Position numbers and translations under genes: made by a program
Shown here: in pieces, positions 1 to 19,333 of the stretch
How positions within the stretch are numbered: position 1 is the first letter of the stretch
Layout of the letters: every line of letters begins with the position of its first letter
Source: a phage
Sequence record: PZ445437.1
Length of the DNA stretch: 64,000 bases
Reading direction: 5' to 3' (one strand)
The notes under the pieces: generated by a model
The model's input: the letters and a program-made list of their open reading frames with translations, nothing else
Databases searched by the model: none
What the model was told of the DNA's origin: nothing

Positions 1-241
1 CATCGTCAATCATCCAGATTCGTTGACCTGCATACATATCAGTAATTGCTTTACGAGTACCGGCAATTCCGTTTACATCATCAGGAATAGTTACAATTTT
101 AGCTCTAGACCCGTAAGCGTCATAATAAGCTTTTTCTTCGTGTTCACGCACTACAATATGGGGTTCATAATCAGTCGGAAACATATCAAGGGCAGAAACT
201 GCCCCGACACGCTGATAACTTGGAATTACGAATTGAATCAT
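1..241 (-). CDS. Glycosyltransferase, GT-A-like N-terminus (5' part only; gene runs off window start)
   Basis: ATG at 241..239 overlaps gene 42 stop (ATGA). N-term MIQFVIPSYQR... resembles GT2 'VIPxYN' motif; does not resemble T4 beta-gt N-terminus. Confidence 0.45.
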   Translation of the reverse strand, partial: MIQFVIPSYQRVGAVSALDMFPTDYEPHIVVREHEEKAYYDAYGSRAKIVTIPDDVNGIAGTRKAITDMYAGQRIWMIDD

Positions 242-978
242 TTCCACTCACCTTTATAGTCTTTTTTCACAATATGAGTTTCGCCAGTATTCCACCAATG
301 ATCAACCAAGTAAAAATGACGAGAATATACATGAAGACTTCCGACATTCCATATAATAGAACCTGCTTTATACTGACGAGTTGAATCGCCTGCATTCAAA
401 TCAGATACTAATTTATCTAATACGTATTTTTGCCATGCATAATCATTACGGAATCCGAAGACCACGTCATTTGAGCGCATGCTTACTACTGCATTGACTT
501 TCTTATCACGAATCAGGTACTGCACTGTATTAGTACACATGAAATCTGACATACCATCTTTATTGTAGTCAAATTGCATGGATGGACGAGTATAAATCAT
601 GATACCACGTCGAGAATCAGGATTTTGACCAAGTTCAGCTAAACACATATCATACTGGGCATAGTTATCTTCTGACCAAATAGCCCAACCATAATTCGAG
701 TTAATTTCGCCTTTAGAAGATGCTACTTGTTGCCAAATCTTTGGTGTTTCACCTGGAATATCTTTAACAAACAGACTTTGAGACTTGTACCATTCAAGTT
801 CACGCTGAATGTATTCATCATTAAGAGCGCCAAAAATAAACGGTTCATCTGCTACAAATGATGCGCCAATAATTTCAATAGTTTTAACACCGGTTTTATC
901 AACTACGAAATCTTTTTCTTTTAATGCAAGCCCCAAATGAAGACGGATTTCTTCAACTGTCATAGAGTCACTAATCAT
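238..978 (-). CDS. 42: dCMP hydroxymethylase
   Basis: 246 aa, same length and sequence as I recall for T4 gp42; position next to imm/43. Confidence 0.95.
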   Translation of the reverse strand: MISDSMTVEEIRLHLGLALKEKDFVVDKTGVKTIEIIGASFVADEPFIFGALNDEYIQRELEWYKSQSLFVKDIPGETPKIWQQVASSKGEINSNYGWAIWSEDNYAQYDMCLAELGQNPDSRRGIMIYTRPSMQFDYNKDGMSDFMCTNTVQYLIRDKKVNAVVSMRSNDVVFGFRNDYAWQKYVLDKLVSDLNAGDSTRQYKAGSIIWNVGSLHVYSRHFYLVDHWWNTGETHIVKKDYKGEWK

Positions 979-1783: not shown

Positions 1784-2035
1784 TTAAAACTTAACAAATA
1801 ACTTTAAAGCATCTTCAGTTTTAATTCCTTTTCTTACACCCATAACAGAAATTGGCTGTGACTGAAATTTTCCTTTACCATTATAAATTTCTAATCCAGT
1901 AACCATTCCATTTTGTTCTATAATACCGTAAGTGTTACCTTCATTTTCAAATTCTTTAACTTTAAAGAGTTTATTAGCTTTTTCTGCGTTAACAACTTTT
2001 AAATTTTGAATAAAATTAGTTTGAATATTTTTCAT
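1784..2035 (-). CDS. Hypothetical protein (83 aa)
   Basis: ATG preceded by GGAGG RBS and early promoter. Confidence 0.5.
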   Translation of the reverse strand: MKNIQTNFIQNLKVVNAEKANKLFKVKEFENEGNTYGIIEQNGMVTGLEIYNGKGKFQSQPISVMGVRKGIKTEDALKLFVKF

Positions 2036-10695: not shown

Positions 10696-11711
10696 TGTGT
10701 TGCCTCTACATATAGCTGGTTTGCATATTGAATAAGTGCTTCACGGTCAGAATCAGTGATGTCTGGAATTGCATTAATGTATTCTTCCATCAACGTCTGA
10801 AGAGATTGAACTTCAACTTCTTCACTGTCATCTGACTCGACAGAGTTATCAATTTTTGACACAACTCGTAATGAATGCACAACTTTTTCTAGTTCAGATT
10901 CGAACTTCGTTAGATTTTTGTCTACTTCAGTTACTATAACACGTACTGATAGATTTGTAAAATCTTTATAGTCAATTTTTCCTTTAAATGGATAATGAAT
11001 TCTACGATGCCAGGTAGTGTTGTTTGGAATAAATTCCATTCGTTCTGTTTCTGTATCAAACATCCAGAACCCACGAGGGTCATTCTCGTCACCTGCAGTT
11101 AGTGTCCATGGTGTCCCAATATATCTGACGTTAGCAGCCTCAGAGATAGTATGGAAGTGACCAGACCACACTTCTTTATAAGTCTTAAGGAAATCAGGTT
11201 CAAGACCATGAGATTTCATTCCTTTATAAAAATAAAATCCGTTCAGTTCCCAGTGACCAACGCAAAAAGAAGCAGATGAAGTTTTGATGTGTTCAAGAAT
11301 TTCACCAGTATTTTCTTCACACATCCAAGGAATTAAATCAATTAAACATCCGTCAAAATCTACTGTAGTAGGCTTATCATATACTTTAACATTAGGATAT
11401 TTAGCCAAAAGCTCAGTAGAGGCATTTGGATGCATTACATTTTTATAGTGGAGATCGTGATTTCCTACAATAGTGTGTAATGTAATTCCAGCATCATCAA
11501 GCGTTTGAACTATTTCACGGGCAAACTCCATAGTTTTATGTGTGATCGCTTTTCTCACATCAAAAATATCACCATATTGAATCCAGGTAGTAATTCCATT
11601 TTTCTTAGAATATTCTATTGCTTGTTTAATTCCATCAATTTGAATACCGCGAATCCACTCATCATCAGCTTTAACGCCTAAATGCCAATCACCCAAGTTT
11701 AGTATTTTCAT
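10692..11711 (-). CDS. 47: Recombination endonuclease subunit, Mre11/SbcD-like phosphoesterase
   Basis: 339 aa (T4 gp47 length); calcineurin-like motifs GDWH, GNHD. Confidence 0.93.
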   Translation of the reverse strand: MKILNLGDWHLGVKADDEWIRGIQIDGIKQAIEYSKKNGITTWIQYGDIFDVRKAITHKTMEFAREIVQTLDDAGITLHTIVGNHDLHYKNVMHPNASTELLAKYPNVKVYDKPTTVDFDGCLIDLIPWMCEENTGEILEHIKTSSASFCVGHWELNGFYFYKGMKSHGLEPDFLKTYKEVWSGHFHTISEAANVRYIGTPWTLTAGDENDPRGFWMFDTETERMEFIPNNTTWHRRIHYPFKGKIDYKDFTNLSVRVIVTEVDKNLTKFESELEKVVHSLRVVSKIDNSVESDDSEEVEVQSLQTLMEEYINAIPDITDSDREALIQYANQLYVEATQ

Positions 11712-12312
11712 GGTGTCTTTTCCATCCTAATTTAGCTGCTTTTGAAACTAGTTCTTTAATTTTTCCTTTTGTCCATTCAGGACCAGGAGGTTCATGACAT
11801 AACATTTGCTTAACTCCGTTATTATACCATTTTTTACCTTTATTATGTGATGAAGCTTTAAATTTATTTGACCTTCCTTTTACATAACCTTCTGGAATAT
11901 AAGGCAAAAAGGCAGATTTTCCTGTTAATGGATCATGTGAATGTATATTTCCTTTACAATTATGAGAACCATATAATGGATGATTTTGTCCTTTATTATC
12001 TCTTCCAAATGAACCTTTTGGAGCAGCATATGACATATTAAAGAATAATGGATTTTTAACTGCATCATGCAATCGTTGATAATATAACTCGCATTTAATA
12101 GCTTCTTCACGCGTATCAAATTCAGCTAAAATGCATGAATCAAATAAGTGAGGATTATCTGAAAGCTCTTTATTATAAATTTTCTTATACTTTTTAGATA
12201 AAACTGAACCATGATATCCAGCTAAATGCCTATCTAAAGACGTAGATCCAATATAAAAAGGAGGAAGTTTATCTCCACTATATATTGTTAAATAAGTTAT
12301 ATATTTTTTCAT
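11689..12312 (-). mobile_element. Freestanding GIY-YIG (Seg-type) homing endonuclease gene, 207 aa
   Basis: N-terminal YITYL..(x10)..FYIGS GIY-YIG motif; NUMOD-like GxNHPLYG repeat; 3' end overlaps gene 47 start by 23 nt. Confidence 0.65.
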
Positions 12313-12472: not shown

Positions 12473-12490
12473 AAAGGGCCGAAGCCCTTT
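12473..12490 (-). terminator. Intrinsic terminator after a-gt
   Basis: AAAGGGC-UUCG-GCCCUUU hairpin overlapping the a-gt stop codon. Confidence 0.5.
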
Positions 12491-13691
12491 ATTTTGTAAT
12501 AATGTCAAACTGTTCTTTAAAGCAGAAGCTTGAATCTTGATGCTGATACAAAAATTCATATGCTTTTTCTCGCTCACGGTCATAAAGAGCTCGGTCAGAT
12601 GACAGTTCTTTAATACGTTCAAATGTTGATTCCATATCATTTTCATCAAACCAAATGATACCGCTATCATGCGAGGTCAAAGGAGTATTATCAACACGGA
12701 ATTTTAAATTTTCGCCAGTAGATTTCCAAAATACCGGAATTGTTCCACATGCACCAAGCTCGAGATGAGTATATTCTAAAGAACGTTGTAGATATTTTTT
12801 ATCCAACTTACTCAACTGATAACCAAAACCGGATTTACTCATACGCTCAAGCATTTCGCTATTTACATAACGATCGAGAATTTGCGTTGGCAAATTAGGA
12901 GCAATTTTAATTTGGTCTACTTGATGAAGACGATAATACTCGTATTGAATTCCTTTTTCTTTAATAGGAATGAACGCTGGAGAACGTTCCAGACCTTCCA
13001 TAATAGTACTTAGTCCTGCAGGTTTAAGATGTTTTTCATGAAAATCAAACATCTGATAAAAACCTTTCCATGTAGTCGTACGACCAATCCAACGGTTGAT
13101 ATTCATGTTAATTTCAGAAACATCTTTCCAGTAGGTTGACCGAACCTTCGCAATATCCATAGGAGGCTGAAAGTTATATACTGTCGGTGCTTCTTCAATA
13201 TCATCAAACAGAGAAACAGTTTCTGGATACCATTCTTTCATCAGAACTTTATTAAAATCACCATTATCAGAATGGCTAAAAATAACATCAGCTCGACGAA
13301 CAGTTTCTTCTAATCCCAAATTTCGACGCAAAGAAAGAGAAGAATGGTCATGCTGATAAACTACAACACGAACCGAAGGTTTAATGTTATCAATAATTTT
13401 TTTATAGTTATTAATAGTGTCTTCTTCAACCGAAGTAGCAGGAACTGAATTGATAATTAGAATATCACAATCATTTACCAGCTTAAGTGTTTTATCATAT
13501 TCTTTTGCCAATAAAACCGGAATTGAAAATGATTTATAATCATGCGCGCAATTACGAGTAAATGATTTATCTTTAGCATAAACCAAAGTCACTTCATGAC
13601 CATTTTTAATAAACCAATCACGTTGCTCGAGTGAGAATTTTGTTACACCACAACCTTCAAGACCTCGAGCCATAAAAATACATACTTTCAT
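12489..13691 (-). CDS. a-gt: DNA alpha-glucosyltransferase
   Basis: 400 aa, T4 alpha-gt length; N-term MKVCIFMARGLEGCGVTKFS matches T4 alpha-gt as recalled. Confidence 0.9.
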   Translation of the reverse strand: MKVCIFMARGLEGCGVTKFSLEQRDWFIKNGHEVTLVYAKDKSFTRNCAHDYKSFSIPVLLAKEYDKTLKLVNDCDILIINSVPATSVEEDTINNYKKIIDNIKPSVRVVVYQHDHSSLSLRRNLGLEETVRRADVIFSHSDNGDFNKVLMKEWYPETVSLFDDIEEAPTVYNFQPPMDIAKVRSTYWKDVSEINMNINRWIGRTTTWKGFYQMFDFHEKHLKPAGLSTIMEGLERSPAFIPIKEKGIQYEYYRLHQVDQIKIAPNLPTQILDRYVNSEMLERMSKSGFGYQLSKLDKKYLQRSLEYTHLELGACGTIPVFWKSTGENLKFRVDNTPLTSHDSGIIWFDENDMESTFERIKELSSDRALYDREREKAYEFLYQHQDSSFCFKEQFDIITK

Positions 13692-18033: not shown

Positions 18034-18504
18034 TTAATCATGTGTCCACACCCCATCGGTATTTGACCAAAGTCGCTGATTATCTGATCCTCGCCACAGC
18101 TTTTTAGTCGGAAGATTTTTCTCATACTTCCCATCAATAATAACATCAACATATTTAAGCATTTCTAGTTGTTTAATATCTTCAAACTTATATCCTGTCC
18201 ACAACCAAATGCTTTTATTGGGATAAAGATTTTTAATAGTTTGAACCACAGAGTGAATCACGTCTCTGTTATCAGGATAAAGAGGGTCACCTCCGGTTAT
18301 AGTCAATCCTTCTATATAATCATTATTCAAACATTCAATTAATTGTTCTAGTGTTTCACCAGTGAATGGAACACCATTTCTAGCATTCCATGTTGATTTA
18401 TTATAACACCCTTCGCATTTATGCAAACAACCTGTAACGAAAAGAACTGTCCTGCATCCAGGACCATTAACAAAGCAGCACGGGTATATTCTGTCATAAT
18501 TCAT
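18034..18504 (-). CDS. nrdG: Anaerobic ribonucleotide reductase activating protein (radical SAM)
   Basis: 156 aa (T4 NrdG length); CxxxCxxC cluster motif. Confidence 0.9.
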   Translation of the reverse strand: MNYDRIYPCCFVNGPGCRTVLFVTGCLHKCEGCYNKSTWNARNGVPFTGETLEQLIECLNNDYIEGLTITGGDPLYPDNRDVIHSVVQTIKNLYPNKSIWLWTGYKFEDIKQLEMLKYVDVIIDGKYEKNLPTKKLWRGSDNQRLWSNTDGVWTHD

Positions 18505-19333
18505 TTATATATTTCCAATTATAGCCTTCAACACTTTTACGTTCGCCATTTAAACATTTTAAAATATTTCCTTTGCTAGAAATATTAAAATATTTTGCTG
18601 CGTCTGGTATATAATTAAATGTTTTTAAAAGAACACCATCTTTATATGCGCCAAATAAATTAAGAGTATATTTTTCTCGAAGACGCTGATGTTTCCTTTT
18701 CATAACCTCAGGATTTGCATACGCCAACTTCAATGAATTTCTGTGTTTTTCTTTTACTTCAGGTTTTTGCATTGCTAACTTAGTTAGCCTGGAAATTTTA
18801 TTTCTAACTTCGTCAGTTTTCATTGCATTTGACAAATTTAATAAAGTTTTATTTCTAACTTCAGGTTTTTGCATTGCTAGCTTAGTTAGTTCTCTATGTC
18901 TTTTTCTAAAATCGTCATCCTTCCATATATTTTTCGATAATTTTGACATAGAGCGGTGAAATAATTCCTTTTCACTGGAATACAATTTAAAAATTTCATC
19001 CAATTCATCCGCATTAAATCTATCGGTATTCGAGTTTATCATTCTATGAAAGGCATAACACATTTTACTATTGCTTGTTTTAGCTAAATAGTAATGAGCT
19101 AACGCATGGTCATAATATGACAAATTAACAATATTCCATTTATCTGTTTTATATTCAGGAAATATAGATTTGGGAAGCACGTGATGTGCTTCCGTTTTTC
19201 CTTTTATTTTAGGATTATTATAATTTTTTGTTATCAAATCAACATATGACAATAGTAAATCATTATTTTCTTCAAATATTAAAGATAATTTATCATTCAC
19301 AAAATCGCAAGGATAAAATCTATCATAATTCAT
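18494..19333 (-). mobile_element. Freestanding HNH homing endonuclease gene (279 aa, Mob-like)
   Basis: HNH motif EAHHVLPKS..N..YDHALAHYY; tandem NUMOD-like repeats (TKLAMQKPEV x2); ATG overlaps nrdD stop; first 13 codons resemble nrdG. Confidence 0.8.

Follow-up and report, generated by a model that had tools for sequence, protein, structure and literature searches.

An open reading frame directly downstream of gene 42 very probably encodes the N-terminal part of a T2/T6-type beta-glucosyl-HMC-alpha-glucosyltransferase

The open reading frame at the left edge of the phage DNA analysed here (PZ445437.1; a stretch of 64,000 nucleotides, hereafter the window) is, with a very high degree of confidence, the 5' third of the T2/T6-type beta-glucosyl-HMC-alpha-glucosyltransferase gene of Tequatrovirus (ba-gt), whose product would act in a pathway that leads via alpha-gt to gentiobiosyl-hydroxymethylcytosine (gentiobiosyl-hmC). 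In T-even DNA, ba-gt decides between mono-glucosyl and gentiobiosyl hydroxymethylcytosine, and thereby affects the sensitivity to modification-dependent defences. The window is to be classed as T2/T6-type (alpha-gt with ba-gt), the usual state of Tequatrovirus, and not as T4-type (alpha-gt with beta-gt). We regard this as the best explanation of a gene content that was computed here and of chemistry and defence effects that are taken from the literature. The gene itself is already known, being published and annotated in hundreds of genomes, and its presence here is no new biology.

Genomic context and coordinates

The features at the left edge of the window and the partner gene of ba-gt are the following.

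1..241, minus strand: ba-gt, first 80 codons plus one base, running off the left edge (orthologues have 280 aa)
2..7, minus strand: codons D79-D80 of ba-gt, with which the Asp run of the WMIDDD (DXD-type) motif begins, after beta-strand 74-78
238..241, minus strand: ATGA overlap of the ba-gt start codon (241..239) with the gene 42 stop codon TGA (240..238)
254..247, minus strand: AAGGTGAG, resembling a Shine-Dalgarno sequence, located 5 nt before the ba-gt ATG within the 3' end of gene 42
238..978, minus strand: gene 42, dCMP hydroxymethylase, 246 aa, assigned by PF00303 and by annotations in relatives
12489..13691, minus strand: a-gt, DNA alpha-glucosyltransferase, 400 aa, intact, assigned by PDB 1XV5 and PF11440

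Read directly on the minus strand, the junction between gene 42 and ba-gt is ...AAAGGTGAGTGGAAATGATTCAATTC..., and translation of 1..241 yields 80 codons without a single stop, open to the window edge. The translation of the ba-gt fragment starts with MIQFVIPSYQRVGAVSALDMF and ends with RIWMIDD, its complete 80 residues being MIQFVIPSYQRVGAVSALDMFPTDYEPHIVVREHEEKAYYDAYGSRAKIVTIPDDVNGIAGTRKAITDMYAGQRIWMIDD; the third Asp of WMIDDD lies just past the edge, and the window thus ends within this motif. The preliminary description had placed the start at 241, linked to gene 42 by ATGA and with 80 codons in the window, and both coordinates and translation agree with it throughout. As an ATGA overlap is an arrangement typical of translational coupling, ba-gt is probably coupled to gene 42 in this manner, and AAGGTGAG may function as its Shine-Dalgarno sequence. 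The identical 4-nt overlap is annotated in phages CM8, AR1, T2, RB32 and AndreasVesalius. The gene 42 product belongs to the thymidylate-synthase family (PF00303) and is a dCMP hydroxymethylase in the annotations of relatives.

The relatives carry the edge ORF as an 843-bp, 280-codon gene between uvsX and 42, a slot that is visible in the window on its gene 42 side and, in CM8, AR1, T2, T6 and AndreasVesalius, on its uvsX side. It is labelled 'beta-glucosyl-HMC-alpha-glucosyl-transferase', 'beta-alpha-glucosyltransferase' or 'ba-gt' in dozens of records, AndreasVesalius among them. Positions 1-1500 of the window match 551 phage records, nearly all of them Tequatrovirus of Escherichia, Shigella and Yersinia, with best identities of 98-99%; in 501 of these records, the match spans 80% or more of the query. 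In the phage collection, Escherichia phage AndreasVesalius matches the first 25 kb best (98.1% identity, 95% coverage), and no record is identical. The 280-aa protein finds 688 records in the same collection by tblastn, 684 of which cover at least 80% of it. Homologues with at least 95% identity account for 471 of the 688 records, and homologues with 60-80% identity for a further 203, including T4-like phages of Klebsiella, Enterobacter and Salmonella.

The partner gene is complete, as had been claimed: over residues 1-400, the product of 12489..13691 matches T4 DNA alpha-glucosyltransferase (PDB 1XV5) end to end with an E-value of 8e-257, and it scores 783.9 bits against PF11440.

Family assignment and fold

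The CM8 orthologue matches the window with 98.75% identity across 80 aa in a tblastn search (E 1.5e-49), and PHROG 842 ('beta-glucosyl-HMC-alpha-glucosyltransferase') is matched by the fragment with an E-value of 2e-31 and by the full-length orthologue with 6.4e-89. Judging from the fragment's two matches, to CM8 and to PHROG 842, the edge ORF is not a chance ORF. Its 80 residues are identical to those of CM8 and of AR1 at 79 positions, to those of T2 (AP018813) at 78 and to those of T6 (AP018814) at 77. The sole change with respect to CM8 and AR1 is the conservative I50V, which RB32 has as well. Arg11 is found in the window as in T6 and most phages, His11 being the residue of T2, whereas Tyr40 and Asp55 are shared with T2 and replaced by Asn40 and Gly55 in T6. 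The earlier proposal of a T2/T6-type transferase for the second glucose is borne out by the identities to T2 and T6 and by the match to PHROG 842.

In Pfam, PF20691 (TET-associated glycosyltransferase, TAGT) matches the full-length CM8 orthologue with 38.9 bits, above the gathering cut-off of 27.5. The 80-aa fragment reaches 23.0 bits (E 8.8e-5) and stays below this cut-off because the window edge truncates the protein to 80 residues, leaving 86 of the 205 profile positions (2-87). No Pfam GT2 match was obtained for the ba-gt protein, which falls into its own family, PF20691, instead.

As a homologue search with the 80-aa fragment gave just four short fragments, it was repeated with the full-length CM8 orthologue and with an exhaustive phmmer run, which returned 359 cluster representatives at E <= 0.001. 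In a conservation alignment of 84 homologues, reaching down to about 20% identity, R11, D80, D175 and G207 are invariant, and I6, P7, R63, D79, D81, G186, G206 and R212 are conserved in at least 90% of the sequences. All conserved positions that fall within residues 1-80, namely I6, P7, R11, R63, D79 and D80, are present in the fragment; D81, D175, G206/G207 and R212 of the orthologues lie beyond the window edge. By this conservation, the N-terminal 'VIPxY' motif, on which the preliminary description had drawn, is a true family signature.

A solved structure for any member of the ba-gt family was not found by sequence search. The fold is accordingly a prediction, from an AlphaFold2 model for which the alignment of 84 sequences was used with the 280-aa orthologue P0005 as the target. 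The model (pLDDT 94.5, pTM 0.92) consists of a single Rossmann-like alpha/beta/alpha domain that can be superposed on solved GT-A enzymes, and the 80 residues of the window correspond in it to the first four core beta-strands (E3-7, E28-32, E48-52 and E74-78). At the level of this prediction, a GT-A fold of ba-gt is confirmed, so that the 'GT-A-like' call now has the support of an orthologue model beyond that of the motif alone. The enzyme, which has a DXD motif, is probably metal-dependent, and as UDP-alpha-glucose gives rise to a beta product, its mechanism must be inverting. These assignments agree with the literature, where ba-gt is described as a TAGT (PF20691) with a GT-A fold in an AF3 model and grouped beside GT2 (NAR 2026, PMC13216743); that it is a TAGT, has a GT-A fold and occupies a position syntenic with T4 beta-gt has already been published (PMC13216743, PMC13390438).

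Sequence variation in ba-gt

Codon 11 of ba-gt is CAT (His) in T2 (AP018813, L005:5092-5094). Its counterpart in the window, codon 209..211 on the minus strand, is CGT (Arg), as it is in T6, CM8, AR1, RB32 and AdolfPortmann. R11 is invariant in the 84 diverse TAGT homologues, and all other sequences examined have Arg where T2 ba-gt has His11. Among 445 records, 100% identity to the T2 allele over the first 80 nt is limited to seven T2 records and SV76, and the next-closest alleles that were checked, those of RB32 and AdolfPortmann, differ from the T2 allele by exactly the codon-11 nucleotide. Over the full length, the T2 and CM8 proteins are distinguished only by R11H and P251S. R11H is a candidate explanation, suggested by sequence comparison, for the low gentiobiosyl-hmC content of T2 as compared with T6; a paper that explains the low level in T2 was not found in our literature search.

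Both public T6 genomes have a lesion in ba-gt, a different one in each. In MH550421 (L004:4951-4953), codon 10 is a TAG amber codon, and the 'ggt' CDS is annotated from Met20, with 261 aa; in AP018814 (L006:4735-4740), an in-frame 3-nt deletion removes one Asp of WMIDDD, leaving 279 aa. Mutations of the stocks or errors in sequencing could account for these lesions, which matter since T6 is the reference phage for the ba-gt enzyme. In Enterobacter phage vB-EclM_KMB17 (OL849997.1:23843-24722), the ba-gt homologue comes in two pieces: a product of 87 aa has a frameshifted tail (…RIWYCWYTSSYY), and the remainder appears as a second tblastn piece that is annotated as a second 'glucosyl transferase'. 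Here, too, the split may be either natural, yielding a pseudogene, or a sequencing error.

Further open reading frames

Four more ORFs of the window are recorded here.

1784..2035, minus strand: ORF of 83 aa, between imm.1 and gene 43
11689..12312, minus strand: ORF of 207 aa, between gene 47 and a-gt, with a 23-nt overlap with the end of gene 47
18034..18504, minus strand: nrdG-like ORF, downstream of the 279-aa ORF
18494..19333, minus strand: ORF of 279 aa, between nrdD and the nrdG-like gene

The 279-aa ORF shows weak NUMOD/I-HmuI-like matches below the cut-off and an HNH-like 'EAHHVLPKS...DHALAHY', and it begins with 13 residues, MNYDRFYPCDFVN, that are almost identical to the N-terminus of the nrdG-like ORF, MNYDRIYPCCFVN; it looks like the insertion of a homing endonuclease with a duplicated target. 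The 207-aa ORF is probably a homing endonuclease of the seg type, with a GIY-YIG domain match of 21.4 bits, just under the Pfam cut-off of 22.6. The 83-aa ORF has no Pfam match. The annotations of T2, CM8 and AR1 list a comparably sized CDS between imm.1 and gene 43 ('No matched to nr'); those of T4 and T6 list none there.

Discussion

What does this gene content suggest about the DNA of the phage? In the proposed pathway, gp42 would produce 5-hydroxymethyl-dCMP, which takes the place of cytosine in DNA; alpha-gt, a GT-B enzyme, would transfer glucose from host UDP-glucose to hmC in alpha linkage; and ba-gt, a GT-A enzyme, would extend the alpha-glucose by a second, beta-1,6-linked glucose, yielding gentiobiosyl-hmC. 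Assuming that the remaining 200 codons of ba-gt are intact, the phage of PZ445437.1 would carry gentiobiosyl-hmC. The gentiobiosyl share of hmC is 5% in T2 and 72% in T6 (PMC6024577, PMC11078745), yet the two enzymes are about 98% identical, and the extent of di-glucosylation is not given by sequence alone. As residue 11 in the window is the family-invariant Arg in place of the His of T2, we expect that the level is probably high, as in T6 or in phages of the Durham collection, rather than T2-like.

Measurements on close relatives provide a frame for this expectation. In Durham-collection Tequatrovirus that have alpha-gt and TAGT but lack beta-gt, HPLC/MS detected 5-hmdC, alpha-glucosyl-methyl-dC and alpha-gentiobiosyl-methyl-dC (PMC13390438), and the beta-glucosyl form was absent from the alpha-gt plus TAGT phages of this collection (AEM 2026, PMC13390438). 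One of the Durham phages, TB37, has about two-thirds gentiobiosyl (PMC13390438), and we find its DNA to be 98.7% identical to positions 1-1497 of the window. The pairing of alpha-gt with beta-gt, the T4 state, is rare, occurring in 6 of 753 genomes (PMC13216743).

The second glucose has consequences for defence. The glycosylase Brig1 excises alpha-glucosyl-hmC, and T6 DNA, which is mostly gentiobiosyl, is not degraded by it in vitro (PMC11078745). A ba-gt deletion in T6 reportedly leaves alpha-glucosyl-hmC only, to an extent presumed by the authors (Nature 2024, PMC11078745); Brig1 degrades the DNA of this mutant in vitro, and in vivo the mutant phage shows a higher sensitivity to Brig1 (PMC11078745). 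Enzymes of the GmrSD type still target gentiobiosyl-hmC DNA (PMC11078745, PMC13216743).

The window holds 80 of the 280 codons, and the intactness of ba-gt in PZ445437.1 is inferred from relatives. A pseudogene or truncated remnant, in which the 80 N-terminal codons are intact, a break follows past the window edge and the phage is only mono-alpha-glucosylated, would have precedents in the amber codon of T6 MH550421, the lost Asp of T6 AP018814 and the split gene of KMB17 with its 87-aa piece. We nevertheless consider it very unlikely: 684 of the 688 homologue-bearing phage records cover at least 80% of the 280 aa in one place, the closest genomes have an intact 843-bp gene, and the visible 240 nt encode one conservative change with respect to the closest orthologues, I50V, which also occurs in RB32. 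More broadly, a copy with this textbook N-terminus might depart from standard ba-gt past the edge, being recombinant, truncated or altered in specificity, and would then entail unusual hmC sugars, for example mono-alpha-glucosyl alone or a second sugar of another kind. To this we assign only a slight probability, and the visible 240 nt contain no sign of such a departure.

A TAGT-family transferase that uses another sugar, or a target other than alpha-glucosyl-hmC, is conceivable in view of the breadth of the family, which comprises representatives down to about 20% identity among the 359 found here. TAGT also pairs with beta-gt, and in 288 of 753 phage genomes it is found alone (PMC13216743), which means that the members of the family cannot all have the same specificity. 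For the protein in the window, though, such a deviation is extremely unlikely, as it is 96-99% identical to the enzymes of T2, T6 and phages with measured gentiobiosyl DNA, and is accompanied by alpha-gt and gene 42.

Could the gene be that of a T4-type beta-glucosyltransferase instead? In T4, b-gt (351 aa, PF09198) and segA lie between uvsX and gene 42, and it is this position downstream of gene 42, together with the use of 'b-gt' as a label for the T2-type gene in some records, that would speak for such an identity. The ba-gt orthologue has no similarity to T4 b-gt in BLASTP (best E 2.2), and T4 b-gt has no homologue in the whole 64-kb window by tblastn (best E 9.5), which rules out T4 beta-gt as the identity of the edge ORF. 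PF09198 matches T4 b-gt and not the ba-gt protein, which belongs to PF20691; the predicted fold is GT-A and not GT-B, and phages with ba-gt showed no beta-glucosyl-hmC by HPLC/MS (PMC13390438). A diverged GT-B enzyme of family GT63 that places one beta-glucose directly on hmC has, in consequence, next to no probability, and the dissimilarity to T4 beta-gt that had been noted for the N-terminus holds for sequence, family and fold alike.

The T2/T6-type ba-gt remains the reading by which the fragment is best understood in relation to known systems. With the ba-gt (ba-gt/ggt) of T2 and T6 it has in common the slot directly downstream of gene 42, the partners 42 and a-gt and, with T2, the ATGA overlap. 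With T4 b-gt (PF09198, CAZy GT63, GT-B, PDB 1JG7), it shares the syntenic slot, the use of UDP-glucose and hmC DNA as the target (PMC13216743), but the sequences are unrelated and the folds differ, GT-B as opposed to GT-A; moreover, the acceptor of T4 b-gt is bare hmC and its product a mono-beta-glucoside, whereas ba-gt accepts alpha-glucosyl-hmC and produces gentiobiose. To cellular GT-A/GT2 enzymes, such as the PglI-like AvpGT (9JMA), TarS (5TZE), TarP (6H1J) and GalNAc-T1 (8V9Q), its sequence identity is 7-15%, and while the acceptors of these enzymes are lipid-, protein- or polysaccharide-linked glycans, that of ba-gt is a sugar on DNA.
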